In this document: piece after piece, positions 29,667-56,285 of the stretch
How the letters are laid out: each line of letters starts with the position of its first letter
Numbering within the stretch: position 1 is the stretch's first letter
Assembly (NCBI GenBank): GCA_000993205.1
Contig: LBVU01000004.1
Coordinates: 27,338 to 91,337, forward strand
Direction of reading: 5' to 3'
Length of the DNA: 64,000 nucleotides
Source: Candidatus Woesebacteria bacterium GW2011_GWB1_39_10
GTDB taxonomy: Bacteria > Patescibacteriota > Microgenomatia > UBA8517
Notes under the pieces: model-generated
What the model was told of the DNA's origin: nothing
What the model saw: the letters and a program-made list of their open reading frames with translations, nothing else
The model's database searches: none
Position numbers and translations under genes: made by a program

Positions 29667-30365
29667 TTGGATATGAAACTTAAACTTGTTGAAAAAAGAG
29701 AAGAGGCTAAAGGAACGGTATCTTTTTTTTGGGAGCCCGAAAAACCGGTGGATTTTTTGGCAGGACAATATTATTACTTCTCTATTCCAAAGCTAAAGTA
29801 TCCTGACTCAAAAGGCACAACCAGACATTTTACAATTTCCTCTTCTCCAACCGAAGGGAACCTTCTATGGATTACAACAAGAATAAGAGAAAAGTCAGGG
29901 TACAAAAAAACACTCAACGAACTTCCTATCGATACTGAAATCGAAGGAGAGGGCCCCAATGGAACTTTCATTCTTGACGAGAAAGACATAGGACCACAAG
30001 TATTCATTGCCGGTGGGGTCGGAATTACTCCGTTTAGGAGCATAATTAAATACGCTATAGATAAGAACATACAAACTCCAATGTATTTAATCTACTCAAA
30101 TTCTGATAGCCAATTCGTTTTTAAAGATGAATTTGACAAATGGGCAAGTCAAAATGATTATTTCAAAGTTTCATATTTCGATTCGTCTGTTTCTGGCCAC
30201 TTGGATAGCACAAAATTGCAGCCCCTACTTACTACATACAATATACTTCATACAACCTTTTGGTTGGCCGGTCCTCCCCCAATGGTAGACGCCATGGAGC
30301 AGGTTTTAGGTAAACTTAAGATTACTTCCGACAAAATCCGCTCCGAAAAATTCACAGGATATTAG
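29667..30365 (+). CDS. FAD/NAD(P)-binding oxidoreductase (ferredoxin-NADP reductase fold)
   Basis: 232 aa. RHFTISS (RxYS-type FAD site) and FIAGGVGITPF NAD-binding motif. Confidence 0.65.
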   Translation: MDMKLKLVEKREEAKGTVSFFWEPEKPVDFLAGQYYYFSIPKLKYPDSKGTTRHFTISSSPTEGNLLWITTRIREKSGYKKTLNELPIDTEIEGEGPNGTFILDEKDIGPQVFIAGGVGITPFRSIIKYAIDKNIQTPMYLIYSNSDSQFVFKDEFDKWASQNDYFKVSYFDSSVSGHLDSTKLQPLLTTYNILHTTFWLAGPPPMVDAMEQVLGKLKITSDKIRSEKFTGY

Positions 30366-30405
30366 CTTCACTGATTCCCTCAGTGTTATAATCTTTGCAG
30401 AGTTT

Positions 30406-30478
30406 GCCGAGGTAGCTCAGTTGGTAGAGCGGCGGTATCGTAAACCGCAGGTCGTGGGTTCGATCCCCACTCTCGGCT
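30406..30478 (+). tRNA. tRNA-Thr(CGT)
   Basis: Acceptor GCCGAGG/TCTCGGC, anticodon stem GCGGT/ACCGC with loop ATCGTAA, T-arm GTGGG-TTCGATC-CCCAC. Confidence 0.85.
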
Positions 30479-30491
30479 CCCAAGATAAATT

Positions 30492-31220
30492 ATGGCTATT
30501 ATGGCTAGAAATTATTCCAGGCTGGCATCGGTTGAAGAAAGAAGGAATCTAAGAAGAGCAATCACATACATTGTTCTTGCAATTTCAGGTCTTGTACTTC
30601 TCTTCTTTTTGGGAATACCGGTAATCGGAAGATTCACCGCTTTTGTTTCTGATCTTGGAAAAAGTAATAAGCCGATTACAAACACTGACAAGACTCCACC
30701 CGCACCACCAAGATTCAATACTTTCCCGGATTTTACAAACCAAAACCAAATAAGTCTTGCTGGCACCACCGAGTCGGGGACCACGATTAAATTGACATTT
30801 AACAGAAACGTAATAGATACTCTTGCCGACAAAGACGGTACCTTTACGTTTAGCAACCTGACCTTAAATGATGGCTACAATATTTTTTTTGCCACCTCTA
30901 CCGACGCTGCCGGGAATAATAGCCAACAAACACAAGAATATAAAATAGTTTTTGATAACAAACCCCCCGACCTGACAATAGAAAGCCCCGGTGACGGCTC
31001 AACTTTTTTTGGATCAAAGCAGAGGCAAATTACAATTCAGGGAATATCTGAAAGCGGAGTTCAAATAACAATTAACGATAGAGTCGTTGTTGTCGATGAT
31101 AATGGTAAATTTCAATATACATTAACTCTCAACGAAGGAGAAAATAAATTTACAATTAAAGCGACCGACCAGGCAGGAAACTCCATCGAAAAAGACCTCA
31201 TGTTAAGTTTTTCTCCTTAA
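30492..31220 (+). CDS. Membrane-anchored protein with Ig-like (Big-type) beta domains
   Basis: 242 aa. N-terminal TM, then repeated T/S-rich beta-strand segments (TIKLTFNR..., KFTIKATDQAGN). Confidence 0.45.
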   Translation: MAIMARNYSRLASVEERRNLRRAITYIVLAISGLVLLFFLGIPVIGRFTAFVSDLGKSNKPITNTDKTPPAPPRFNTFPDFTNQNQISLAGTTESGTTIKLTFNRNVIDTLADKDGTFTFSNLTLNDGYNIFFATSTDAAGNNSQQTQEYKIVFDNKPPDLTIESPGDGSTFFGSKQRQITIQGISESGVQITINDRVVVVDDNGKFQYTLTLNEGENKFTIKATDQAGNSIEKDLMLSFSP

Positions 31221-32373
31221 CACAAAGGGCAAGCAAAAATACCATCCACCCCATTATCCAGGGATAAAAAAGTGAATTTGAAAACAGACTATGAACTGCG
31301 AGAGCTAAGAACGAAGAACTAAGAACTAAAAAGTTGGGAGTATGTTTTACAGATAAGCCGATTCCTGATATTGAATAAATAAAAACTATTAAGCCAACAA
31401 CCCCAGTAGTTGTCAAAACAAACAAGAGACTTGAATCAGATCCTGAACAAGAGTGAGAAGTAAACGTCTGAGATCCAATATATTTTTGGTAAGCAACGCA
31501 CATATTGTTGTATCCAATCCCAAATATTGGAGACTTTGAAAATATTGCCAATGTAGATTGATAGTTTTCAACTTTTGCAATAGCTGAAAAACTTCTAAAA
31601 AGTTGAATGCTATGATTCTTTGTTGTGGGTAAAACAAAGACTAATACGACAAACAAAATCGATGGGATAATAATTTTCTTTAATATTTGTTTACCCCAAA
31701 TAAACAGAGTAAGACCCACAAAAAGCGCCAAATAGCTTGCCCTGGAATAAGTAAAGGCCAGAGAGACTAAAAGAAACATTAAAAATAGAATATTTTTGAA
31801 GTTCCAACTACTAATACATCGATGTATTAGTAGTAACAAGCCAAAAACAATAATCAGACCCAAAAATGTTGGATCAAGAAAAGTACCAACTAAACGAAAT
31901 AAATGCATATCCCAACCCCATTCAAAAAAAGGTTTAATGTCGGGGAATCTAAAAAACTGAATCCAACCAAATATTACAGATACGACAGAAACGGTTAGAA
32001 GAGAATCAACCAGCAATTTTTTATTCTTTGATCTACCCGCTGAAAAATTCAAAACATATATGAGAAAGTAAGAATAGGCAACCAAACGGAGAAGATATAA
32101 AAGTCCATAAAGTACCTCTATTTGTTTAAATATAAATAACCCAAAAATCCAGGAGAACGTCGCTACAACCAACAATCCTTGAATATACTTAAAAAAATCC
32201 GGTTTTTTGAACCTTTTAATAATTGCATGGACTGCCCCCAGTCCAACGATCACGTCCATCGGATGCAATATCCCAATTCTAATTATTTGTCCAAAAGGAA
32301 ATATTACAAAGAAAAGAAAGATGAATATATTATTAAAATTTAGGCGTTTTGTATTATCCATTGTTTGCTCCAT
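31198..32373 (-). CDS. O-antigen ligase / Wzy-like polymerase family membrane protein
   Basis: 391 aa, about 10 TM segments, a YSRASYLA motif region resembling the Wzy_C ligase domain. Confidence 0.5.
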   Translation of the reverse strand: MEQTMDNTKRLNFNNIFIFLFFVIFPFGQIIRIGILHPMDVIVGLGAVHAIIKRFKKPDFFKYIQGLLVVATFSWIFGLFIFKQIEVLYGLLYLLRLVAYSYFLIYVLNFSAGRSKNKKLLVDSLLTVSVVSVIFGWIQFFRFPDIKPFFEWGWDMHLFRLVGTFLDPTFLGLIIVFGLLLLIHRCISSWNFKNILFLMFLLVSLAFTYSRASYLALFVGLTLFIWGKQILKKIIIPSILFVVLVFVLPTTKNHSIQLFRSFSAIAKVENYQSTLAIFSKSPIFGIGYNNMCVAYQKYIGSQTFTSHSCSGSDSSLLFVLTTTGVVGLIVFIYSISGIGLSVKHTPNFLVLSSSFLALAVHSLFSNSLFYPWIMGWMVFLLALCVKEKNLT

Positions 32374-32903
32374 GACAGAAAGGAATGCAAAGACTGCATT
32401 ATACTAAAAACTATGTTTCTGGTTTTAAAAAAAGTAATTAAAAATTTCCCAAAGGGAAAAAAAATAATTTTTAAAAGCGTCGGTCTTTTTCCTTCCTCAA
32501 TATTTGCTTTCGCGTGCAGATCTGAATAGAAATTAATTTTCGAGATATATTCATGAAGATTGTCGGCAGTATTGTGAATTATTGGGGTATCGATCATTCC
32601 AACTCTGCCAGTTGACGGTTTCCAAACTTCATGAACACATCTTGCCCATTTCCCGGTTCCTTTTTTTACTAAACGGATAATTTTATCGTTCCCAAAATAC
32701 TGACCCAAAAAATAATTTTTCCTTATAAATTGATAGCATGAAAAATCATCGGATGTTTCAATTTTGAACTCTTTTAAAATTGTCTCATCTTTGTCCAAAA
32801 ATAACACCCAATCAGCTTTAGATTTTTTGAGTAATTTGTTTCGTGATGCCGCAAAATCTGTAATATTTTTTTTATTTAAGATAGCGGTCGTGAAGTTTTT
32901 CAT
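32340..32903 (-). CDS. Truncated GT2-family glycosyltransferase fragment (lacks the N-terminal nucleotide-binding half)
   Basis: 187 aa. Begins at the ASRNKLL...ADWVLFLDKDE (DxD) segment, which normally sits ~90 aa into GT2 enzymes. Confidence 0.4.
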   Translation of the reverse strand: MKNFTTAILNKKNITDFAASRNKLLKKSKADWVLFLDKDETILKEFKIETSDDFSCYQFIRKNYFLGQYFGNDKIIRLVKKGTGKWARCVHEVWKPSTGRVGMIDTPIIHNTADNLHEYISKINFYSDLHAKANIEEGKRPTLLKIIFFPFGKFLITFFKTRNIVFSIMQSLHSFLSWSKQWIIQNA

Positions 32904-35164
32904 TTAATTGATTTAAATACCTGTATACCCCCATCTACCCAAATTTCGCGTCCGGCTGCAATCTGTCCGGAACTACCTTCTTCAACTATTGTATACCGCA
33001 CTCCTGCATCACTCTTAATTTTTGCGCCTCTAATTGTTAATAGATAAATATAGTTATTTGCAAAATTATTTTCGAATTGATCGTTTACCCCAATCCTTGA
33101 GATTGAAAAATCTGACCCTTTTGAATCTTTAATAATTTCATTGACCGTTGAAAGTTGAACCGAGTACGGCGGAGGGCTTTGGGAATAATCGGTAATAAAT
33201 TTATCCCGGTAAAACCAATCGGTGCTGACTAAATTCCATATTCCGAAACTTCCGATTAAAAACGTAAGAATCGCCAAAACAATATTATTTTTAAAAGTTT
33301 TTACCAAAATGTAGCTTGCCATGATTAACGGGACTGGGAAAATCGCCAGATAATAATGTTCTGGAGGGGCTCCGTGCATGAATAACCCAAGATAAGGGAT
33401 GATTAAATTAATCAAAAGTAAAATAAAAGCCGTTTCTTTATTTTTGTCGCGAAGGGGCCTAAAAATCCAAAAGGCGGATCCGAAGGTTACAAAGGCAAAT
33501 AATGCGATCGATAAAGTATTTGAATTCGGAACAAACGAGTCTTTAAAAAACTGGTATACAGAGTAAATGTTTTGCGACAAGACTTTCAAATTAACACTAT
33601 TCTTGGGATACAAACCAAAAAAACCAAGTACCCGGTAGGGGATCCATGTTATAAGTTGAAGTGTTATTGCAAATTTGTTTGATATCTCATAAATGATGAA
33701 GGTAATATTGGGGATCAGGAAAGCTAAAAAGAAATATATTACGTATTTTAATTTTGGGCTGACTTTAAAATAAATAAAACATACGATAGTTGCCGGAATT
33801 AAAAGAAACGGGCTTGGAAAAAAATTCATCGAAAGCCCCAAAATCAGTCCTAAAACACCTAAACTTTTACCTTTATCATTAATCGACTTTAGTAAATACC
33901 AAAGATATGGGAAAAATATTATAGCGGCCGGTGCATTATAACGTGAGTTTCTGGTCAACACGATCCATGCTGGGGAAACCGCCAACAGGAAAGAGGAAAT
34001 CAATGCAATTTTTTCGTTAAATAATTTTTTAACATAGTAGTAGCAAACAAGGATTGAAACCGATTCGACGACCGCCCAAAAAATATTGATTACACTAGGA
34101 TTAAATCTTGCAAAAAAAAGAAGAACGGTATAGATCCAATATGAAATTGGCGGAATAAAAAACCATTCGTGTGAGGTTCTGGGGCCTATCAAAAATGTCC
34201 GTGTTCCATGGATAATATTCCAAACGTTCATATAGTCTGTTCCCATCTCACCATTTAAAACAAGGTTGGGTATTAGTCTATAAAATCTCAAAAATGTTCC
34301 AAGGATCAATATTCCTAAAACCATTAGCGTACTTTTTGAAAATCTGGCAAACATTTCAACTATCAAAGCAGGTAAAAGGCCGTAGTGTTTTTTAAAATAA
34401 TAATATCTGCTATGTGCAAATATTTGCTTTATTTGATCGGAACTCTTCGGCGTCCCTTTAGATTCCATGTGTATTGCTTCGGATTTTGAATCAAAATAAA
34501 TTTCATGTCCGTTCTTTTTTAGACGTTTCGAAACATCGTTTTCTTCAAAATATAAAAATAGATTCTCGTCAAATTTATCAATTTTTTCGTAGACCTCTTT
34601 CTTAATCATGAAGGCGCCAAGTTGCCCCACTTCTACTTTCCGAGAAGTTCGCCTATTCCAACTATCCATCAGGTAATCTTTAACTATTGGATTGACGGGA
34701 AAGATTTTGTTTATGAAAGATAGAAAAAATATTCCTCTAACCGGGGTTAATTCTTTAGTCGCTTCGGGAGTAAATCTCCCCGAAATGTTTTTAATACGTG
34801 GAACCACCATCCCAATTTTGCTGTCTTTTTTCAAGATATTGTAAATATTTTTAAAGGATTGGAGATCGATAAGAATATCCGAGTCAATCGAAAAAATAAA
34901 CTTTCCAACCGCGTGCCTAATCCCGAAATTACGCCCCGCCCCCCATCCTAAATTTTTTGAAGCAGAGATGTATTTAACCCAAGAATATTTTTTCTTAACA
35001 GTATTTTCCTCAAGTTTTTCACCATTATTGTCCACCAAAATAAATTCACCAGATTTAAATTTCGATTTGATTATTTTTAGTTTATCTAGACACTTGTAAA
35101 CTTCACCGCCGTGCCCGAAATGCCCAACAACCACCGATACTTTAATCGTTTTTCGAAGCTTCAT
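32900..35164 (-). CDS. Fusion glycosyltransferase: N-terminal GT2 catalytic domain plus C-terminal multi-TM GT-C/PMT-ArnT-like domain
   Basis: 754 aa. VSVVVGHFG...ILVDNNG...GWGAGRNFG...SIDSDILID GT2 motifs, followed by ~12 TM helices. Confidence 0.55.
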   Translation of the reverse strand: MKLRKTIKVSVVVGHFGHGGEVYKCLDKLKIIKSKFKSGEFILVDNNGEKLEENTVKKKYSWVKYISASKNLGWGAGRNFGIRHAVGKFIFSIDSDILIDLQSFKNIYNILKKDSKIGMVVPRIKNISGRFTPEATKELTPVRGIFFLSFINKIFPVNPIVKDYLMDSWNRRTSRKVEVGQLGAFMIKKEVYEKIDKFDENLFLYFEENDVSKRLKKNGHEIYFDSKSEAIHMESKGTPKSSDQIKQIFAHSRYYYFKKHYGLLPALIVEMFARFSKSTLMVLGILILGTFLRFYRLIPNLVLNGEMGTDYMNVWNIIHGTRTFLIGPRTSHEWFFIPPISYWIYTVLLFFARFNPSVINIFWAVVESVSILVCYYYVKKLFNEKIALISSFLLAVSPAWIVLTRNSRYNAPAAIIFFPYLWYLLKSINDKGKSLGVLGLILGLSMNFFPSPFLLIPATIVCFIYFKVSPKLKYVIYFFLAFLIPNITFIIYEISNKFAITLQLITWIPYRVLGFFGLYPKNSVNLKVLSQNIYSVYQFFKDSFVPNSNTLSIALFAFVTFGSAFWIFRPLRDKNKETAFILLLINLIIPYLGLFMHGAPPEHYYLAIFPVPLIMASYILVKTFKNNIVLAILTFLIGSFGIWNLVSTDWFYRDKFITDYSQSPPPYSVQLSTVNEIIKDSKGSDFSISRIGVNDQFENNFANNYIYLLTIRGAKIKSDAGVRYTIVEEGSSGQIAAGREIWVDGGIQVFKSIK

Positions 35165-35165
35165 A

Positions 35166-36419
35166 TTATGTCATCGAGATTCCGGGAAATGAAACTATAA
35201 ATTTACCTCCATTTTTGACAAAAGCCCGTTCTTTTTTAATTATTTCCTTTTTATAATTCCACGCAAGAAGCAATACATACTTCACACTATCTTTTCTAAA
35301 TATTTCCGGTGAAACAATTGGAATGTGCGTTCCCGGAGTAAACCGACCTTGTCTTTCGAGAGACTCGTCAACTATATAGTCCAAGATGTCATTGCCAATT
35401 CCACAAGTACTCAGAAAGGTATTTGCACGCCCTCCTGCCCCGTAGCCAACGATTCTTGACCCGCTTTTTTTAATACCCAATAACAATCTCTTTATGTTCA
35501 CTCTGTGTTTATCAATTTTTAAATCAAAGTTTTTTAGGATTTTCTCATCAACATGTCCAAGTCCGCATTCGTATTTTTTTAATTTTCCGACGCTGACTTC
35601 TATTTTCAGTTTATTGTTAGTTTTAAATTTAGCATAAACACGAATCGAACCGGAATGTATCGACATTTTTTTAACATCAAATATTTCCAGATTAAACTTA
35701 TTCAAAAACGGGTTTAATGTCGACAAGTTGTAATAACTTAGGTGTTCACCATAGAAAAAGTCATATTGCATCATTTTTAAAAGGTCGGGGAAATAGTGAA
35801 CCTCAAAAATTAATACCCCATCACTCTTAAGGAGCTTACTTATACCACTAAATACATTGTCCATATTGTCAATGTGAGCTAAAACATTATTTGCCAAAAT
35901 TACATCAGCCTTTCCATTTTTCTTCAAAATTCGATCCGCTACTTTAACCCCAAAATAATCGAAAACGACATTAATCCCTTTTTTCTTGGCAATTCTCCCA
36001 ACATTTACGGCCGGGTCTACCCCTAGAACTTTATAACCCATTTTTAAAAGCGGAGAGAGTAAGACTCCATCGTTGCTGCCAATTTCCACTATAAAGGAAT
36101 TCTCATTCAAGAATTTCTTTTTTACTTCCTCGGCATATTCCTGAAAATGCTTCGTTAGACTTACCGACGATAGATAATGATAATTTTTAAATAAAGTCTC
36201 GGAAGAAATAATATCCAAATTTTGAATTAGACCGCAACTCTTGCAAAAGAAAATTCGAAGAGGGTAATAATACTCTTTTCCCACCTCCCATGGTTTAAGA
36301 TAATTGCCAGCATGGGGCATATAGCCAAAATCCAGAAATTTGATCAATTTGCGACTTTTGCAAAACCTGCAGATACTTCTCTTTTTGAATTTACCTAATT
36401 TTGCCTTTCTCTTAGTCAT
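35166..36419 (-). CDS. SAM-dependent C-methyltransferase-like (Zn-ribbon + class I MTase + C-methyltransferase C-domain)
   Basis: CRFCKS...CKSCGL zinc ribbon, VEIGSNDGVLL (SAM motif I), C-terminal domain as in NDP-sugar C-methyltransferases. Start set at internal MTKRK. Confidence 0.55.
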   Translation of the reverse strand: MTKRKAKLGKFKKRSICRFCKSRKLIKFLDFGYMPHAGNYLKPWEVGKEYYYPLRIFFCKSCGLIQNLDIISSETLFKNYHYLSSVSLTKHFQEYAEEVKKKFLNENSFIVEIGSNDGVLLSPLLKMGYKVLGVDPAVNVGRIAKKKGINVVFDYFGVKVADRILKKNGKADVILANNVLAHIDNMDNVFSGISKLLKSDGVLIFEVHYFPDLLKMMQYDFFYGEHLSYYNLSTLNPFLNKFNLEIFDVKKMSIHSGSIRVYAKFKTNNKLKIEVSVGKLKKYECGLGHVDEKILKNFDLKIDKHRVNIKRLLLGIKKSGSRIVGYGAGGRANTFLSTCGIGNDILDYIVDESLERQGRFTPGTHIPIVSPEIFRKDSVKYVLLLAWNYKKEIIKKERAFVKNGGKFIVSFPGISMT

Positions 36420-36466
36420 TTGTGTGTAGTTTAGCAAAAATTGTGCTAACATTCTCTCAAATTGCC

Positions 36467-37225
36467 ATGGCCAAAGATTTTCTGATTCTCGGGGGAGAAT
36501 CCACATTAGCCAAATATTTTATTCAAACTTATGGGGAAAAGTGTGTGGCATTGAACAAAAAGAAGTGCGACATAACAAATATTAAGATTTTGGAGAAAGT
36601 TATAAAGAGAACCAGAGCAGAATATATCCTCAACTGCGCAGCAATTACCGATATTGGATACGCAGAAAAAAATCCTAAAGAATGTTTTAATGTTAACTCC
36701 ATTGCCGTCTGGAATTTAGATATACTTACCCGAAAATATAATAAAAAATTAATCCACCTTTCTTCAGACTATGCAGTTAACCCGACAAATGTTTATGGAT
36801 ATTCTAAGCTAATCAGTGAAAGGCTTATCAACAAGTCTAAAAACCTTATCATACGAACAAGTTTTTATAGCAATAAATATTACATAATAAACTCTCTCGT
36901 TTCGGGTAAAGTCACCAACGCTTACAAAAATGCTTTCTTTAATCCCGTATCCATAAACCGACTAGTCGGGGAAATTTACAAAAACAGAAACAAGCATGGA
37001 ATTCTTAATATTTTTACAGAGAAAAAAATATCCAAATACAGTTTTGCAACAATGGCAGCTAAAACTTTTAATATCGATCGAAAGTTAATTCAGCCGGTTG
37101 ATTTAATTAACGTTGAGGAAAAAGCAAACCTACCATTAAATTCATTCGTTCCATCAGACATCAAAATTCAGCTGGATGAAGATCTTCTTACTTTTAAAAA
37201 ACATTTAAAGCCTATCACGTCTTAA
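36467..37225 (+). CDS. dTDP-4-dehydrorhamnose reductase-like (RmlD/short SDR) protein
   Basis: LILGGESTLA Rossmann-like start and the YGYSK catalytic Y-x-x-x-K. Confidence 0.45.
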   Translation: MAKDFLILGGESTLAKYFIQTYGEKCVALNKKKCDITNIKILEKVIKRTRAEYILNCAAITDIGYAEKNPKECFNVNSIAVWNLDILTRKYNKKLIHLSSDYAVNPTNVYGYSKLISERLINKSKNLIIRTSFYSNKYYIINSLVSGKVTNAYKNAFFNPVSINRLVGEIYKNRNKHGILNIFTEKKISKYSFATMAAKTFNIDRKLIQPVDLINVEEKANLPLNSFVPSDIKIQLDEDLLTFKKHLKPITS

Positions 37226-38435
37226 GGGTCTTAAATATAAAGTACCCCGTAAAGGGCAGGGAAATTAGGGTTCCTATGATAGCCGATGCACCGGCCCCTA
37301 TTATTCCATAAGTTTGTGTGAGAGGAATAATTGTAACCCAAAGACCCAGGGTACTAACAATTGTTACGATTGCAGAATATTTTTGCTTCTCTTTTGCGAC
37401 CAATAAAGAATTTGTCGAACTGGCGATACCCCGAACTACACCAAGTACAGACAGAAGTTTTACAACAGGGATAGCACTCTCCCATCCTTTTCCAAAAAGA
37501 ATATTAACTATCGGTGCGGCAAAAACAAAAACAATTATTCCTGCAGTCGTCATTAATACAAAATTCGCTAAAGTATTTTTAATAAAAGCGGATTTAAGTC
37601 GGGCGGCCTCACCCGAAATCTTGGAAAAGATTGGAAAAGTTACTCTGTAAAAAATATCTCCAACTTCAGTCAGTGGAGCAGTCGAGATTTTATATGCATT
37701 TTGGTAAATTCCCAGTGGAGCGATACCTAAAATTTTACCGACAACGACATTGTCACTTTGTGTATAAAAATAGTCAAAAATCCCAAAAAGTGTTACCCAC
37801 TTACCCCTTTCAACTACTCTTTGTATCTTGACTTTATGAAAAGCAAACTTCGGCCAAGGTCTTGCAACAATAAATGTGTAAAAAACCTCAAAAACTGCAC
37901 TTGCTACAAGCCCCAAAACCATTCCGTATGCGGATTGTAAAATTATTACGCCAAGCACTGAAACCAAGCACTCTATCGAAAAAACCGAAATTCTATATAA
38001 AAATTCTTTGTTAAACTGCAATTCTTTTTGAAATTTAACAATTGAAGGATTAATTAATCCGCGGATTAAAGGTACTAAAGAAGCTATATACAAAAGAGCC
38101 TTTGATCCGGGCGAGTTGAAAAATCCCGAAATAGGAGATGCGGTAATAAAAATAAGGATTGAAATTAATAGACCGCGGATAATAGAAACTACCCATGCAG
38201 TATCTATATAGTTATCAATATCCTCCTTTTCCTGAATAAGAAAAATATTAATTCCGGTTTCTGTGATAATCTCTAAAAATCCCAAAATTATCGTAACTAC
38301 TCCAAAAACTCCCAAACTAAATGGAGTAAGAATGTGAGCGATAATCGCAATCCGGATAACACCAATAAGACGATACAGGACCCTAAAGGCAGTCATCCAA
38401 CTTAAACCTTTTAGTGTGTCTTTAAAATAACCCAT
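37215..38435 (-). CDS. Polysaccharide biosynthesis / Wzx-type flippase (MOP superfamily)
   Basis: 406 aa with ~12 TM helices. Sits inside the glycan cluster. Confidence 0.55.
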   Translation of the reverse strand: MGYFKDTLKGLSWMTAFRVLYRLIGVIRIAIIAHILTPFSLGVFGVVTIILGFLEIITETGINIFLIQEKEDIDNYIDTAWVVSIIRGLLISILIFITASPISGFFNSPGSKALLYIASLVPLIRGLINPSIVKFQKELQFNKEFLYRISVFSIECLVSVLGVIILQSAYGMVLGLVASAVFEVFYTFIVARPWPKFAFHKVKIQRVVERGKWVTLFGIFDYFYTQSDNVVVGKILGIAPLGIYQNAYKISTAPLTEVGDIFYRVTFPIFSKISGEAARLKSAFIKNTLANFVLMTTAGIIVFVFAAPIVNILFGKGWESAIPVVKLLSVLGVVRGIASSTNSLLVAKEKQKYSAIVTIVSTLGLWVTIIPLTQTYGIIGAGASAIIGTLISLPFTGYFIFKTLKT

Positions 38436-39379
38436 TATCTATTAATTATACCTGATACAAACCCTCCCATGACACCTAGGTCAGAAACTATTTGAAGAAT
38501 GGGTCCCCAGACAGCCACTCGGTAGTCTCGAAATTCAAGATATATTTTCCGAAACGCGTAAATTAAATAAAGAAAAAAGAAAAAAAGCAAATAGGCGAGT
38601 AGGTAGGGGAACTCAAAACTAAGAACTAATAACGAAAAACCTGCAAGGTAACGAAAGAGAACAAAAAGAGCTTTAATATTGTGCGACGCAAAGCCTTTTC
38701 CGGGAAATATCCAAATTTTTGATTTTGCGTCCCCTTTTGCATATTCATAAATCTTAGATCTGAAATCCTTGATCGACCCGGGCATCCCCCACTCTACGAT
38801 TGCATTTTTCATGCGTGAAATCTTAGCTCCATTTTTAATTAATTTATAGTTAAAAACTGTATCCTCCGCCGTTCTCTCCGCCCCCTCAGGAAACCCACCA
38901 ACCTTTTCCCAAATTTTCTTTGTGAAAGCAATTGAGCGTGTTGAAGGCAAAAAACTGACATCAAAATCTTTCGGCCTTGTCCCTAAAAATACGGACATTG
39001 CCTTTTTGACAGGGTGCGACCCTGTCATGCGGTAAAACCCCGCAACAACATCGACTCCTGCATTATCAAAAGGGGAAATTATGTTTTTTATCCAATAGGG
39101 AGAAGCTACGCAACCGGCATCGGTCATAAGAATAATTTCACTTTTTGCAATTTCCACACCCAGGTTGCGGCCTCTGGCCCTTGAACATTTTTCGACAAGA
39201 AGTTTAATACGACCTTCTCTTTTTTGATAATGTCTGATTATTTCAACTGTTTTATCTTCAGAGCCGCCATCAACAATGATAATCTGATCAGGTTTTTTTG
39301 GCTGCGCCAACAGAGAATCCAAAAGTCGCCCTATTGAATCTTCTTCATTTAGCGTTGTTATACAAATCGAGATATTCAT
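38435..39379 (-). CDS. GT2-family glycosyltransferase with C-terminal TM anchor
   Basis: SICITTLNEED...IIVDGGSEDKT...MTDAGC motifs (DxD-like). Confidence 0.75.
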   Translation of the reverse strand: MNISICITTLNEEDSIGRLLDSLLAQPKKPDQIIIVDGGSEDKTVEIIRHYQKREGRIKLLVEKCSRARGRNLGVEIAKSEIILMTDAGCVASPYWIKNIISPFDNAGVDVVAGFYRMTGSHPVKKAMSVFLGTRPKDFDVSFLPSTRSIAFTKKIWEKVGGFPEGAERTAEDTVFNYKLIKNGAKISRMKNAIVEWGMPGSIKDFRSKIYEYAKGDAKSKIWIFPGKGFASHNIKALFVLFRYLAGFSLLVLSFEFPYLLAYLLFFFFLYLIYAFRKIYLEFRDYRVAVWGPILQIVSDLGVMGGFVSGIINR

Positions 39380-51124: not shown

Positions 51125-51583
51125 CTAATGTGTGGAGGACCTCTGAACTGCTATTTCCAGTCTATCGATACCATACTTTTCAAATTCCTTCTCATATTTT
51201 TCATAAATCTTGTGAACCCTTTCAGGAAGACAGAAATTCTTTTTGAGCCCTTCTTTTTCCTCCTTAGTTATACTTTTAAAAAAGTCTCTTTTTCCCATTC
51301 TTGTTTGCAATTCTTCCCAAAAGACATCTTCATGAAAAATTTCCATAATCTTATCTTCTTCCTTCCCCAAGGAGTTGGAAACTATTAATTCACCTTTAAA
51401 TTTTTCAAAAAGATCCTCATATCCGAGCTTTTCAGAAAGCTCCAGGAAATATTTTAGTAGTTTTTCGTGCCTGCTTGGGCTTTTGTACTCTTCCCCATTA
51501 TATTCGTCGACTGCTTCACGAACCCAACTGCCAACAATCAAAGTTAATATCAGTTCTTTGAGTTCACCTTTCGTAAATTTCAT
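51125..51583 (-). CDS. Hypothetical acidic helical protein, last gene of the R-M-like operon
   Basis: 152 aa with no recognisable motif. Start overlaps the specificity-subunit stop by 1 nt. Confidence 0.4.
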   Translation of the reverse strand: MKFTKGELKELILTLIVGSWVREAVDEYNGEEYKSPSRHEKLLKYFLELSEKLGYEDLFEKFKGELIVSNSLGKEEDKIMEIFHEDVFWEELQTRMGKRDFFKSITKEEKEGLKKNFCLPERVHKIYEKYEKEFEKYGIDRLEIAVQRSSTH

Positions 51584-52977
51584 TAATTTTCGTCTCCTTT
51601 TTCAATCATCTGCTCGACTTTTCTTTTCGCTTCTTCAAGCAATTCTTTGGATTTTTTGCGTGCTTCATGAGATTTTTTAACCAAGTCTGCAATTTTTTGT
51701 TGAGTTTCCTTTGGTAAAATTGGAATTAATATATTCTTTATTTGTTCGGGCTTCCAGTGAACGATAATAGACCCACCAGCATCCCTTTCTGCCTGCATCT
51801 GCCCTACCAGAGAGCTGATACAAAGGGATAAATACTCAGGTTCAATATCACCTTTTAACCTAAGCCTTAAAATCCCCCCAGAAATTATTCCTTCAATCGG
51901 TTCTTTTACAACATAAGAAATTCCCGGGGTAGCATCTTTCGTTAGTAAAATTTCTCCAACTTTTGGTTCATAATCTGATCTTAATTTTTGATAAAGCTCG
52001 TCTGATAAATACTTTTGATCTTTTGCTTCAATTCCAAATTTAGTTAAACTACTGACGCGAATAAATAGTTTTCCTACTTCTTGATATGCTTCGCTACCTG
52101 GCTCAAGACCTTTTTTAAATGTAATTAATTCTCCTAAGAGTTTGGCGTTGTTAGTTTTTATCTTCTCTAAGATTATTTGATATTTTGGCTGGAAGTAATC
52201 AGCATCAACTCTATCAACGTTTCCTGTATCGGAATAATTAACAATGTAACTAAGATCTTCCAGAATTTTATGATCTTTTAATCCCAATTCATCCAAAAGT
52301 AAATTTTCTGCTTGTTGATAAAATTCTTCAGACTGATCGAGTTGAGATTTAGATTTAAGAAAATAATGCTTCACTTTGTCGTTTGTTTCATTGTCTGGTA
52401 TAGGAATAAGTAGGTCTCTCAAACTGTCTTTAATAATGGTTGGTTGGCCAGAACCTTGGAGATGTCTTAAAATTAATTTTCTTCCAACGTTTGAGTTAAT
52501 AAAAGTAACAATAAATTCATTTAAGCTAGAACTTTTAAGTTTGATTAAGAAAATGTTGTCTGCGAGCGTCGCTTTATCTTTAACACTTGGCATAATATAA
52601 GCTTTTCCAAGGTATTCTCCAGTTTTTGAAATCAACACCTCACCTCCTTGAAGTTTGCTCTTTTTTAAAAATTCGTATGTGGCCTTATCTACATACCTAA
52701 TATTTTCGTTAAAATTATTATTATCTAAGTTTTGAATTCTTATCCATTTTGCGAAGTTAATACCGTCAGTCACATTAACATTTTGTTTCAATCTCGCGAA
52801 ACTGCCGTTAGACGTATAATCCGTAAGTATTTCAATTAAATCTCCGAATTCTTCATGTGGTATCGACTTTATTGCCAAATTTAAACTTAAACATTCCGGA
52901 TCGTAGTAATCTGCGTCGATTCGGTTGACACCCTCAAGTTGAGATTTTTGGATTATTGAAAAAGTCATTTTTAGCAA
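51583..52977 (-). CDS. hsdS: Restriction-modification specificity subunit (HsdS-like, two target-recognition domains)
   Basis: 464 aa. Duplicated R(I/V)DADY(Y/F).P-led TRDs separated by a conserved helical spacer, C-terminal coiled coil QQKIADLVKKSHEARKKSKELLEEAKRKVEQMI. Confidence 0.75.
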   Translation of the reverse strand: MLKMTFSIIQKSQLEGVNRIDADYYDPECLSLNLAIKSIPHEEFGDLIEILTDYTSNGSFARLKQNVNVTDGINFAKWIRIQNLDNNNFNENIRYVDKATYEFLKKSKLQGGEVLISKTGEYLGKAYIMPSVKDKATLADNIFLIKLKSSSLNEFIVTFINSNVGRKLILRHLQGSGQPTIIKDSLRDLLIPIPDNETNDKVKHYFLKSKSQLDQSEEFYQQAENLLLDELGLKDHKILEDLSYIVNYSDTGNVDRVDADYFQPKYQIILEKIKTNNAKLLGELITFKKGLEPGSEAYQEVGKLFIRVSSLTKFGIEAKDQKYLSDELYQKLRSDYEPKVGEILLTKDATPGISYVVKEPIEGIISGGILRLRLKGDIEPEYLSLCISSLVGQMQAERDAGGSIIVHWKPEQIKNILIPILPKETQQKIADLVKKSHEARKKSKELLEEAKRKVEQMIEKGDEN

Positions 52978-53687
52978 CTAACAGCTTTGCTTGTTAAAGT
53001 AAAATCCTTAATATCCAATGATTGATTATTTAATGTAAAGTCCTTATAAAATCTCTGGGAAGAAGTCTGAACTTCTACGTTTACTTTGTATTTTCCTCTT
53101 TGTAGGGCAAATTGTGGATGTTTAAAATCGTAGGCATAACTCCAATCATTAAAACCATAACAAGGATTCTCATTATGAAACTTAACTGCTACGGCCATTT
53201 TGCCTTCTTGTAATTCATCCAAACTTTTTGATGGCGATACGGAGGCAATAACCCCTTCAGGGAACTTCGAGATATCAATTTTCCTGTCTGAGGTAATTGG
53301 CTCCCCCTTGCTTGACCACCTGCCAAAAAAACTGCACAAAGTATTCCCATCTGTATTTAAAATCTTTAATTTTACTTTACAATATTCTGCCGATCTCCTA
53401 CGAAAAATAAAAAACCAACTTGGGTTGTCTAAATTTATAATATTTATATGTACGAACTTAAGAGTTCCATTTGGTGATTCGTCTTCTGAACCTAAACATA
53501 TTTTTATATTTGGTTTAGTAAAATAGTCATTAAAATAGATTCCGAGAAAAGAAAGTAAGAACCCGATATATACAGAAAAATAATCTACAGGTTTTGTGGA
53601 AACACTAATAGTCAAAAAGGCAAACACAACAATCAATGTAACCCAAAATAAATATTTTAAATTATCAAAAAAGTTGTTCATTTCCAA
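52971..53687 (-). CDS. Hypothetical two-TM membrane protein with a beta-rich extracytoplasmic domain, embedded between the methylase and specificity genes
   Basis: 238 aa. N-terminal helices LFWVTLIVVFAFLTISV and VYIGFLLSFLGIYF. Overlaps both neighbours (10 and 7 nt). Confidence 0.45.
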   Translation of the reverse strand: MEMNNFFDNLKYLFWVTLIVVFAFLTISVSTKPVDYFSVYIGFLLSFLGIYFNDYFTKPNIKICLGSEDESPNGTLKFVHINIINLDNPSWFFIFRRRSAEYCKVKLKILNTDGNTLCSFFGRWSSKGEPITSDRKIDISKFPEGVIASVSPSKSLDELQEGKMAVAVKFHNENPCYGFNDWSYAYDFKHPQFALQRGKYKVNVEVQTSSQRFYKDFTLNNQSLDIKDFTLTSKAVSC

Positions 53688-55654
53688 AACCCAAATCCTT
53701 CATTTTTGGCAAACTCAATAAACTTATCTGCGATTTCATCAAGATCGTGATCAACCGCTGGATCGCCTTTTGGATTTGTGACAATTTGACCTTCTTCATC
53801 TTTTTTGTAAACATAATCACCACTATTATCCTTACCACTCTTTTTGGAAACTGCCATAAATATTGGATAATCTTTTGGTACTTCTTGTTTTTCCTCCCAT
53901 TTTTGCAAGAATAATACAGAAGTCTTTGTTCCCGTGTGAGGTTTAAAAGTGTTAACATTAAGCCCAACCACCGCCAAAATTCTTGCTTTATCAAAAAGCC
54001 AACTCCTAATATAACTCATATTTGTGTTATTCAAGACCCCCTGGGGAAGAACTATTGCTAAGCGACCTCCGGGTTTAACCAAATTTAAAGCCCTCTCAAT
54101 AAATAGGATGTGGCGTTCGGATCTATCTTTTAATTTACCTTTATCATTTTTTGCAAGCTCGTACTCGTTAAGAAGCTGTCTCTCACGAATTTCACCCGCG
54201 AATGGGGGGTTTGTTAGAACAACATCAAAATCAAAGAACTTAAAATTGTCTTGATTATTTCTGTCTTTGTCATAATCATTAAATTTGTGAAGTCTTTCAA
54301 GTAGCTCCGCCCTCGCTCTCAATTTCTCCGAATCATCACCTTTCCATTCCTGAGGATTGAGCGAATTTAATCTAAAAATATGTGATCTTCCATCGCCGGC
54401 AATTAACATTAAAGCTCTGGAAATTTTTACAGGTTTATCATCAAAATCAATTCCATAAATATGTTTTCTTGCAAAGTCAGATTTTGTCTCGGCTGACTTC
54501 TCCGACATAAAATTATCCCAAATCCATTGCATTGCGTGAATTAAAAACCCACCTGAACCAGATGCGGGATCTATCACATATTCATCTTCTTTTGGGTTTA
54601 ACATTTTGACAGCCATATCAATTACATGGCGTGGGGTAAAATATTGACCTTTCTTACCTTTGGCAACATCGGGGAGTAGATATTCAAAAGCACGGTCAAT
54701 AATTCCTAAATCGGCATCGAGTAGTTTTACTTTTTCTAGTTGCCCTACACAAACTGATAAATGGGATGGAGAAAGTTGAATCTTTTCGCCATCGACAAAC
54801 ATTCCCGGCCATTCTTTTGTGGAACTTTCAAAAAGTCGTTCTATGTTATCGTAGGTAACTTGCGGGTTTGTTGATTGCCTAAATAGGAGTTCGCCTTTCC
54901 TATCTCGTGCGTATTTTTCATCATAAAGTTTCGCATAAATTAACTTAAAAATTTCATTAAACGAGTCAACTCCCGCTCCAGCCAATACGAGTTCTTCCAA
55001 GACTTTAATGATTTTTACTAAATCGTATTGTTTTTCCAGTTGATCCAAAGTCAGTTTTGCATCCTGAACATCTTCTATCGTTTGATCAACTCTAGGGATA
55101 TCACGAAGTGTGTTTTCAAAATTGTGAGGATACGGTCTATAAAGGATGACCCTAACAATACCGTTTGATAAAACTCCAATTGGAGCACCTTCAGCATTAA
55201 GATAACTTTTAATTTGCTCAATTCCGTCTTTTGCTTCGGGACTTTTTACCTCAATTATAATTTGGGGTGTTTCCTTGTCTTCCTTGTAGACGACAATATC
55301 AGCAGCCTTTTCACGAACTTCACGTCCAAAATTAACTTCTTTTTCGACAGCGATCCTGTCTAGTGGATAATTGTAAAATTTGGTAAGTTTAAAAAGCCAA
55401 AGCTGGCGAACAATTTCTTCCGGCTCACCAATTTGTTTTTCTTCATTCCAAATAGATAGATCTATATTTCTTTTGAGACACTTTAAGAAAAACCTACCCT
55501 TTTCTTTCTCAAATATATCGAGAGATTCTGAAGGTTTTATATTTTCAAATTCGGTTAAACCATACTGAACTTCGGGGTTTTTAAAAATTTTATTTATAAT
55601 TTCAGAGTTTAACTTTGTATCCATTTTAGTTTGATTCACTGGCAACCTTACCAA
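53678..55654 (-). CDS. Fusion protein: N-terminal PD-(D/E)xK nuclease domain (HSDR_N-like) + gamma-class N6-adenine DNA methyltransferase (HsdM-like)
   Basis: 658 aa. ADIVVY...IIIEVKSPE (D...EVK nuclease motif) in the first 180 aa; MTase motif I VIDPASGSGGFLIHA and motif IV TNPPFAGE. About 130 aa longer than canonical HsdM. Confidence 0.7.
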   Translation of the reverse strand: MVRLPVNQTKMDTKLNSEIINKIFKNPEVQYGLTEFENIKPSESLDIFEKEKGRFFLKCLKRNIDLSIWNEEKQIGEPEEIVRQLWLFKLTKFYNYPLDRIAVEKEVNFGREVREKAADIVVYKEDKETPQIIIEVKSPEAKDGIEQIKSYLNAEGAPIGVLSNGIVRVILYRPYPHNFENTLRDIPRVDQTIEDVQDAKLTLDQLEKQYDLVKIIKVLEELVLAGAGVDSFNEIFKLIYAKLYDEKYARDRKGELLFRQSTNPQVTYDNIERLFESSTKEWPGMFVDGEKIQLSPSHLSVCVGQLEKVKLLDADLGIIDRAFEYLLPDVAKGKKGQYFTPRHVIDMAVKMLNPKEDEYVIDPASGSGGFLIHAMQWIWDNFMSEKSAETKSDFARKHIYGIDFDDKPVKISRALMLIAGDGRSHIFRLNSLNPQEWKGDDSEKLRARAELLERLHKFNDYDKDRNNQDNFKFFDFDVVLTNPPFAGEIRERQLLNEYELAKNDKGKLKDRSERHILFIERALNLVKPGGRLAIVLPQGVLNNTNMSYIRSWLFDKARILAVVGLNVNTFKPHTGTKTSVLFLQKWEEKQEVPKDYPIFMAVSKKSGKDNSGDYVYKKDEEGQIVTNPKGDPAVDHDLDEIADKFIEFAKNEGFGFWK

Positions 55655-56243
55655 TTACCTTTCCCAAAAGTCTTGTTTCCGGGTATATCGGAATATTCTG
55701 ATATTTTGGATTTTCAGGTTTCAAATATATTCTACCATTTGAATTAATCAAACGCTTAATTGTTGTGCCATCGTTATCACGAGCAAGCACAACATCTCCA
55801 TTTCTAAATTCCTTAGCTTGCTGGATAATAACCTTGTCTCCGTCTTTTATACCCGCATCCGTCATAGAATCCCCTGTAACATCAACAATAAAAACATTTT
55901 GCGCTGTCTTCATGTCTTCAACTTCCTGCCAATCAAGATTTTCAAACGCATCTTTATATGGGCCAGCTGCAGTAAAACCTAAACTTGGGATAAGCGGTCT
56001 TGCCGATAAAATTTCAAATCCTTTATCTAAAATCCTTATGCCACGAGCCGTTCCTTCCTCTCTTTTGATAAAACCTTTTCTTTCCAAAACACTGAGAACA
56101 TCTATTACCGCTTGATTAGAAACCACGTCTAATTCTTCACGCAAATCCGCTAAGGTGGGAGGGTAACCTGAATTTTTAATTGAAGTGTGAATAAATTTTA
56201 AAACCTGTTTTTGCCTTTTTGTTAATTTTTGGACAGAAACCAT
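55626..56243 (-). CDS. lexA: LexA repressor (S24 peptidase)
   Basis: 205 aa. N-terminal winged HTH (LTKRQKQVLKFI...GYPPTLADLREEL), S24 catalytic Ser in VTGDSM and Lys in the GKVIGKV region. Confidence 0.85.
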   Translation of the reverse strand: MVSVQKLTKRQKQVLKFIHTSIKNSGYPPTLADLREELDVVSNQAVIDVLSVLERKGFIKREEGTARGIRILDKGFEILSARPLIPSLGFTAAGPYKDAFENLDWQEVEDMKTAQNVFIVDVTGDSMTDAGIKDGDKVIIQQAKEFRNGDVVLARDNDGTTIKRLINSNGRIYLKPENPKYQNIPIYPETRLLGKVIGKVASESN

Positions 56244-56253
56244 ACTTATTTAT

Positions 56254-56271
56254 ACTGACTATTTAGTCAGT
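56254..56271. promoter_or_regulatory. Palindrome ACTGACTA-TT-TAGTCAGT 10 nt upstream of the lexA start (candidate LexA autoregulatory box)
   Basis: Perfect 8-bp arms read directly. Confidence 0.45.
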
Positions 56272-56285
56272 TGTCAAGCTGTAAT

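Follow-up and report, generated by a model that had tools for sequence, protein, structure and literature searches.

A predicted Type IIB restriction-modification subunit with an N-terminal nuclease domain in a LexA-headed operon of Candidatus Woesebacteria

We analyzed a 64,000-nt stretch of DNA from Candidatus Woesebacteria bacterium GW2011_GWB1_39_10 (contig LBVU01000004.1, positions 27,338 to 91,337), hereafter called the window. On its minus strand, one gene encodes a protein with an N-terminal PD-(D/E)XK nuclease domain and a gamma-class N6-adenine methyltransferase domain, which we named RM for restriction-modification (R-M). We consider RM, with a probability of about 0.65, to be a subunit of a two-component, ATP-independent Type IIB R-M enzyme of the BcgI/BsaXI kind. 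A single chain carries both domains, its catalytic acidic and lysine residues lie at the positions essential in BsaXI, and a specificity (S) gene with two target-recognition domains (TRDs) is encoded in the same operon. The fusion architecture is not new, since an RM fusion plus an S subunit is the known Type IIB design. The part that may be new is a LexA-headed operon with an operator and a cargo slot, spread across the Candidate Phyla Radiation (CPR).

Domain architecture of the RM fusion gene

Counted from a TTG codon, the open reading frame (ORF) of RM has 658 amino acids (aa). Because the 100%-identical database proteins have 653 aa (P0001) and 648 aa (P0002), and homologue alignments begin at M11 of the 658-aa ORF, translation probably begins at the ATG at 55624, for a protein of 648 aa. 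The identical entries come from Candidatus Woesebacteria GW2011_GWB1_39_10 and from a Microgenomates bin. Residue numbers follow the 658-aa (TTG) numbering unless stated otherwise. The features of the gene are as follows.

53678..55654, minus strand: RM fusion gene (nuclease domain, helical linker and gamma-class N6-adenine methyltransferase), uninterrupted ORF
55094..55423, minus strand: PD-(D/E)XK nuclease domain, residues 78-187, Pfam HSDR_N_2
55343-55345, 55298-55300, 55250-55252 and 55244-55246, minus strand: catalytic codons of E104, D119, E135 and K137, respectively
53825..54703, minus strand: N6-adenine methyltransferase domain, residues 318-610, Pfam N6_Mtase (E=1e-39)
54545-54571, minus strand: methyltransferase motif I, DPASGSGGF, residues 362-370
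54200-54211, minus strand: methyltransferase motif IV, NPPF, residues 482-485

The preliminary description of this DNA had pointed to a D...(E)VK nuclease signature ahead of intact motifs I and IV, and this signature is present as KAAD119IVVY...QIIIE135VK137SP. Its proposal of an HsdR-N-type nuclease domain at the N terminus agrees with the Pfam match and with the predicted fold described below. Pfam HSDR_N_2 (PF13588) matched residues 78-187 over all 110 model positions, with 75.8 bits and E=3.5e-21 (cut-off 25), and N6_Mtase (PF02384) matched residues 318-610 separately with 137 bits. The order of the two motifs, I before IV, is that of the gamma class. Further, the PADLOC model MTase_I (PDLC03034) matched RM over its full length with 600 bits, and Pfam MmeI_Mtase scored 23.9, under its cut-off of 27. 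The estimate that the protein is about 130 aa longer than typical HsdM also held, as solved Type I M subunits have 445-544 aa and the EcoKI M subunit has 529 aa. More than 100 homologues share the length and architecture of RM. The public Pfam annotation of the family already shows both HSDR_N_2 and the methylase domain; the database names given to it are only 'N-6 DNA methylase' or 'Type I restriction enzyme'.

Catalytic residues and fold of the nuclease domain

By sequence, the top match of RM in the PDB was the BsaXI RM subunit, with E=2.2e-28 for the single sequence and E=3.9e-39 for the family profile. In both alignments, E104, D119, E135 and K137 of RM pair with E73, D90, E105 and K107 of BsaXI. 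Substitution of any one of these four BsaXI residues by alanine abolishes cleavage, and all four are absolutely conserved in the wider Type IIB family (PMC11997821). The preliminary description had made its proposal depend on the D, E and K residues being positionally conserved with PD-(D/E)XK catalytic residues, and the one-to-one pairing shows that they are.

We compared RM with 120 homologues of at least 67% identity each. E104, D119, E135 and K137 are invariant in 121/121 sequences, and methyltransferase motifs I and IV show little or no variation. The nuclease and methyltransferase domains are conserved to a similar degree, with identity to the query averaging 0.74 and 0.79, respectively. 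More distant homologues were sought among 1.84 billion cluster representatives, and the best 150 were examined. The N-terminal domain is kept in 90 of these (33-56% identity), with D retained in 87 of the 90 and E and K in 84 each; truncated proteins account for some of the exceptions. Each of the remaining 60 is either a fragment or a plain methylase whose sequence begins near residue 200. Therefore, the nuclease domain is a module that is carried or lacked within the methylase clade.

AlphaFold2 models of full-length RM and of the N-terminal 200 residues alone reached a mean predicted local distance difference test (pLDDT) score of 80 and 85, respectively. Both models display the alpha-beta-beta-beta-alpha-beta core of restriction endonucleases. 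E104, D119 and the pair E135 and K137 are placed on the three central strands, at 91-97, 106-113 and 120-126, respectively (strands in 648-aa numbering). When the whole RM model was searched with Foldseek, BsaXI ranked first (E=1e-24, 662 aligned columns), and Type I M subunits aligned over about 410-550 columns. The structures used for comparison included those of BsaXI, BpuSI, DrdV and HsdR, and the figures from the fold comparison are as follows.

BpuSI, Type IIG (nuclease domain): 9.8
Type I HsdR fragment 3h1t: 9.6
Other PD-(D/E)XK nucleases (TT1808, DUF820, Cas4): 8.3-8.6
DrdV: 7.8
EcoR124I HsdR: 6.3
BsaXI: 5.3

Taken together, four independent lines, namely the pairing with BsaXI, the 121 close sequences, the distant homologues and the structural model, argue for a real and intact nuclease domain. 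The idea that one protein could both cut and methylate DNA is thus well supported by homology.

The S subunit and the operon

RM lies in a cluster of five genes, four of which are listed here together with the promoter region.

51583..52977, minus strand: S subunit, 464 aa, two TRDs; Pfam Methylase_S (two stretches), PADLOC Specificity_I
52971..53687, minus strand: 238-aa cargo protein between RM and S, ORF only
51125..51583, minus strand: 152-aa tail gene, whose start overlaps the S stop codon by 1 nt
55626..56243, minus strand: LexA-type repressor, 205 aa, first gene of the operon; Pfam LexA_DNA_bind and Peptidase_S24
56249..56277, minus strand: promoter with embedded operator (TTGACA 56277-56272, palindrome 56271-56254, TATAAA 56254-56249)

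The lexA, RM, 238-aa, S and 152-aa genes are all on the minus strand, abutting or overlapping, and form one operon. The lexA stop codon is 1 nt ahead of the RM ATG. The 238-aa gene has an in-frame ATG at 53681 that shares the sequence ATGA with the RM stop codon, and it appears to be translationally coupled to RM. Within the operon, our scan for terminators and promoters gave no convincing candidate on the minus strand.

Among relatives, TRD1 of S (residues 41-220) is hypervariable, with 15-30% identity to the window copy. Pairwise identities of S and RM are uncoupled (r=0.18), and those of LexA and RM co-vary (r=0.77). Hypervariable TRD1, the uncoupling of S from RM and the LexA-RM co-variation therefore point to a restriction system with diversifying specificity, the core of which, judging from these identities, seems to be a jointly inherited LexA and RM. 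TRD2 (residues 260-420) is far less variable than TRD1, at 40-55% identity to the window copy; diversification may proceed more quickly at one half-site than at the other.

For the 238-aa protein, whose N-terminal region looks hydrophobic by eye, we found no match in Pfam, NCBIfam, PADLOC or PHROG and no homologue among 136 cargo and tail proteins of related loci. The 152-aa protein likewise had no match in these four databases. Its sole homologue among the same 136 proteins is encoded in the cargo slot between RM and S of a Sungbacteria locus (L023, 11098-11577), so the 152-aa gene acts like mobile cargo.

The operon is flanked by housekeeping genes, with ftsZ, ftsA and murG upstream and ileS downstream. 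G+C content falls to 0.32 over 52-54 kb of the window. Another region of low G+C (0.34-0.36), at 30000-38500, encodes glycosyltransferases, an O-antigen ligase-like protein, a polysaccharide transporter and a C-methyltransferase, and is probably a surface-polysaccharide island.

LexA and its putative operator

The first gene of the operon has the sequence hallmarks of LexA: a winged-helix domain, an S24 peptidase domain, an Ala/Cys-Gly cleavage site and a Ser-Lys pair. The window protein matched Pfam LexA_DNA_bind and Peptidase_S24 with E=1.4e-18 and 1.1e-24, respectively. The cleavage-site Gly, the catalytic Ser and the catalytic Lys are invariant in 56/56 sequences (the window and 55 related loci). 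Whatever the flanking genes, lexA lies directly upstream of RM, within a few bases, in 71/81 loci.

The spacer of a near-consensus TTGACA/TATAAA promoter is filled by a perfect 18-bp palindrome, ACTGACTAAATAGTCAGT, which TATAAA overlaps by one base and of which this is the sole perfect copy in the window. We read this TTGACA-N17-TATAAA promoter by eye, as the strict -10 rule of our scan (T at position 6) missed it. TATAAA ends 5 nt before the lexA ATG, and only 42 nt separate the ftsZ stop codon from this ATG. The short distance from the -10 element to the ATG suggests that the lexA transcript may be leaderless or nearly so.

We compared 69 upstream regions (the window and 68 related loci). 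Perfect outer half-sites ACTGAC...GTCAGT occur in 17 of them. Other lineages have variant operators, such as ATAGACCAAATAGTCATA and CCCGACTATTTAGTCGGG, which retain the GAC-N6-GTC core; this core is found in 46/69 upstream regions versus 1.7% of random background regions. The general layout of promoter and operator is shared by 53/69. From the position and conservation of the palindrome, we infer that LexA represses its own operon, including RM and S, and that SOS self-cleavage would induce it.

Two further arrangements were noticed upstream of RM. A small conserved gene of 118-147 aa with the motif DNTEEDLILVPPSVLDNKLRDFE lies between lexA and RM in three loci (L068, 5936-6379; L070, 3168-3524; L088, 7586-7969). 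In about seven loci (L035, L036, L037, L040, L044, L085 and L086), a RadC-N-like helix-hairpin-helix gene replaces lexA. Its product carries the motif LPEDERPREKLLKYGADKLSD.ELLAILLRTG.KGKS, often has about 110 aa without a JAB domain, and may be an alternative regulator.

In the searchable literature, which did not cover the 2017 paper on the patescibacterial SOS network, we found no description of LexA-linked R-M in CPR bacteria. A 2026 preprint on CPR methyltransferases mentions neither LexA nor Type IIB. The 2017 study of the SOS network of Patescibacteria by Sanchez-Osuna, Barbe and Erill may mention an SOS-regulated hsdMS operon. Because it may already report the lexA linkage, we claim no novelty for the LexA-operon part.

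Relatives of RM and the hypervariable cargo slot

We scanned one genome per species, found a relative of RM in 323 species and analyzed the best 80, together with loci from an exact protein look-up. The best 80 relatives are nearly all from CPR/Patescibacteria, with 56-83% identity. Some contigs are titled 'uncultured Gammaproteobacteria' or 'Bdellovibrionales' (L009, L011, L013, L015, L019 and others); they carry an RM with 66-83% identity in a CPR-type operon, and are probably mislabelled metagenome bins.

An S gene is located downstream of RM on the same strand in 66/66 loci with enough sequence, at a distance of -13 to 3663 nt. RM and S are adjacent in 6 of these loci, and 1-5 genes lie between them in the other 60. 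This slot is thus occupied in about 90% of loci, in the window by the 238-aa gene, and 98/101 slot ORFs are co-directional with the operon. The 136 slot and tail proteins fall into 96 clusters, 75 of them singletons. Pfam analysis of 97 slot proteins (the 238-aa protein of the window and 96 from related loci) gave the following families.

NYN: 9
DUF3800: 9
DUF4145: 5
Trypsin_2: 5
AAA_21: 3
AAA_15, ClpP, GIY-YIG and T5orf172: 2 each
Schlafen/AlbA_2, PemK, RnlA and AbiU2: 1 each

The content of the slot is a defense-island repertoire of abortive-infection and toxin types. A PDDEXK_1 gene found after S (L001, L007) was considered as a conserved second nuclease and rejected, as it occurs in only a few loci; it does not belong to the core.

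Homologues with 42-48% identity are encoded on plasmids of Klebsiella pneumoniae and Trichormus variabilis, as pairs annotated 'N-6 DNA methylase + restriction endonuclease subunit S'. Neither HsdR nor LexA accompanies these plasmid pairs. The homologue on the 27-kb Trichormus plasmid stands alone with S and has 917 aa, the size of BsaXI.

No motor subunit gene found near the operon

When the 10 largest window ORFs lying upstream of 48 kb were searched with Pfam, none had a helicase or HsdR domain; all encode housekeeping proteins (PEP synthase, DnaE, PolX, glycosyltransferases, GatB and others). The ORFs at 48-64 kb were accounted for, with no helicase or HsdR among those examined. Similarly, no superfamily 2 (SF2) helicase or HsdR adjoins the operon in five homologue loci with Pfam-annotated flanks. 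A classical Type I system was therefore rejected, as no HsdR or other motor was found near the operon in the window or in these loci and the nuclease domain sits on the M protein. A Moranbacteria locus (L003, 1-2690) has, about 5 kb upstream of its LexA-RM operon, a separate N6_N4_Mtase gene adjacent to a DEAD/ResIII/SWI2_SNF2 gene, a Type III-like arrangement, as well as a second peptidase gene with an S24 domain only.

Proposed mechanism and alternative explanations

In a Type IIB enzyme of this composition, two RM chains would assemble on one S subunit as (RM)2S, with S reading a bipartite DNA sequence. Where host sites are hemimethylated, the methyltransferase domains would modify their adenines. 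Foreign DNA lacking methylation would instead be cut by the N-terminal PD-(D/E)XK domains, which the helical linker holds in place and which would act beyond the recognition site, at fixed distances on both sides and without ATP. LexA would hold expression of the operon low, and DNA damage or infection would raise it through RecA-stimulated self-cleavage of LexA.

A wider proposal, which we put forward tentatively and with considerable doubt, is that the BcgI-like RM and LexA operon, with RM and S bracketing the cargo slot, is a hitherto undescribed SOS-inducible defense cassette across the CPR. LexA would then be cleaved upon DNA damage or phage attack, so that restriction and the cargo effectors are turned on at the same time. 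This would imply a regulatory class of its own, unlike the usual constitutive or C-protein-controlled R-M systems.

Several points weigh against the Type IIB assignment. RM is only about 23% identical to BsaXI, and the alignment of the N-terminal domain alone is weak, at 9.7 to 18 bits. Besides the four residues above, BsaXI needs D816 and E823 of its C-terminal 'paddle' for cleavage (PMC11997821). RM has no counterpart of the region that bears them, and the mechanism is not directly copyable from BsaXI for this reason. The likeness to BcgI is by description, not by sequence alignment. Type IIB function of RM and its close relatives is predicted from homology. Additional partners may exist, as most loci hold further genes between RM and S, and the closest named NCBIfam families of RM and S are MAD2 and MAD5 of the multi-gene MADS system. 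The motor search in this genome covered the 64-kb window, which leaves room for an HsdR elsewhere, and the flanks of the 80 scan loci were screened for LexA, S, RM, PDDEXK_1 and RadC-like genes only, not for helicases. As to regulation, LexA binding at the palindrome is suggested by position and conservation only.

The main alternative is that RM is the methylase or sensor of a larger, MADS-like or Type I-like defense system, whose nuclease acts only together with a motor or HsdR encoded elsewhere or with partners from the slot. The best NCBIfam matches (MAD2 with 318.7 bits, MAD5 with 199 bits), the gene order of regulator, methyltransferase, two genes and S that MADS shares, the co-directional genes between RM and S in 60/66 loci, including ATPases and nucleases, and the 64-kb view of the genome all speak for it. 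However, both scores are far under their cut-offs (720 and 400), and MAD6-8, which are mandatory for calling MADS, are absent. The cargo is also not conserved, as its 96 clusters and 75 singletons show, and RM abuts S in six loci, which makes RM and S the constant core. Moreover, neither the window nor any of the five Pfam-annotated homologue loci has a motor gene adjoining the operon, and the plasmid homologues stand alone. We therefore judge a larger system of this kind unlikely.

The nuclease fold might also be kept for DNA binding or complex assembly without cutting, leaving a LexA-controlled methyltransferase with an epigenetic or repair-linked role. PD-(D/E)XK folds are sometimes reused as non-catalytic modules, and RM is unusually conserved (56-83% identity) over many CPR phyla and tied to an SOS repressor. 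Such a role is hard to reconcile with the four catalytic residues, which are invariant in close homologues and largely kept in distant ones, because a non-catalytic domain would not need them. TRD1 of S is hypervariable, and the abortive-infection and toxin-type genes that abound in the slot indicate a defense role. A non-cutting domain is thus quite improbable. As short D/E-x-K strings are common in any protein, the D...EVK string might even have arisen by chance, or two genes might have been merged artificially into the long ORF; given the full-length Pfam domain match (E=3.5e-21), the confident predicted nuclease fold and the more than 100 homologues of the same length and architecture, the chance of this is negligible, and we excluded both origins.

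Significance

The fusion as first described matters little by itself, as it is the textbook Type IIB design. Its practical value lies in annotation: thousands of such CPR proteins are probably self-contained restriction enzymes rather than orphan methylases, and corrected annotation would shift estimates of defense in CPR bacteria, which are CRISPR-poor and have tiny genomes. A restriction enzyme tied to an SOS repressor and a slot for defense genes would give a testable model of damage- or infection-induced defense in an uncultured group. If active, the compact family (648 aa plus S) could also supply new Type IIB specificities. The further interest of the system hinges on whether its regulatory and cargo-slot organization proves undescribed.

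Comparison with known systems

Type I systems resemble the operon in that its methyltransferase core and S are homologous to HsdM and HsdS, its nuclease domain is of the HsdR N-terminal type, and unrelated defense genes are embedded among the R-M genes. These embedded genes are reminiscent of prrC and the 'rlo' genes, which occur within Type I loci. Here the methylase carries the nuclease domain, which in Type I systems belongs to the motor subunit.

Type IIG enzymes (BpuSI, MmeI, DrdV) share the order of an N-terminal PD-(D/E)XK domain followed by a gamma-class methyltransferase. Unlike RM, which is accompanied by a separate two-TRD S subunit, they carry their own TRD in the chain and cut on one side only. 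We rejected a Type IIG assignment, as the RM chain ends soon after the methyltransferase domain, specificity is on a separate S, and MmeI_Mtase is below its cut-off (23.9 < 27).

MADS has a similar order of regulator, methyltransferase, intervening genes and S (bioRxiv 10.1101/2023.03.30.534895). In contrast to MADS, the regulator here is LexA, and MAD3, MAD4, MAD6, MAD7 and MAD8 are absent; in the detection model of the MADS authors, MAD6, MAD7 and MAD8 are mandatory (bioRxiv 10.1101/2023.03.30.534895). Membership of MADS was rejected on the MAD2 and MAD5 scores under the NCBIfam cut-offs, the absence of MAD6-8, and the absence of any other MADS protein in the PADLOC results. We observed that the MAD2 model (NF047738) matches RM residues 114-629 from model position 75 of 654, starting inside the nuclease domain. 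For this reason, MAD2 may also be a nuclease-methylase fusion; such a fusion would be consistent with the report that loss of mad5 (S) is lethal except when mad2 or mad3 is deleted as well.

BsaXI (PDB 8w0p) likewise combines an N-terminal PD-(D/E)XK domain, a helical connector and a gamma-class N6-adenine methyltransferase in one chain. Its separate two-TRD S subunit, encoded after RM, has 476 aa versus 464 aa here (PMC9159934). The RM subunit of BsaXI is longer, with 916 aa versus 648 aa, and the alignment ends near BsaXI residue 630. In addition, S is separated from RM by a cargo gene here, and the operon is headed by LexA. Membership of the BsaXI subfamily was rejected for want of a counterpart of the C-terminal paddle region.

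BsaXI and BcgI are both (RM)2S assemblies, in which the RM gene precedes the S gene and S has the arrangement TRD1-CR1-TRD2-CR2 (PMC9159934). The N-terminal domain of BcgI has the motif PE-X12-ExK (PMC9159934), and its predicted S fold has been described as skewed (PMC11997821). BcgI therefore shares the E-x-K motif with RM and differs in having PE, not D, at the first acidic position. BcgI is the archetype of the Type IIB enzymes, and its two-gene design, with the A subunit as the RM fusion and the B subunit as S, is the same as that found here. The BcgI A subunit has about 637 aa, close to the 648 aa of RM, and the B subunit, with about 341 aa, is shorter than S. By this BcgI length, RM is closer in size to BcgI-A than to BsaXI.

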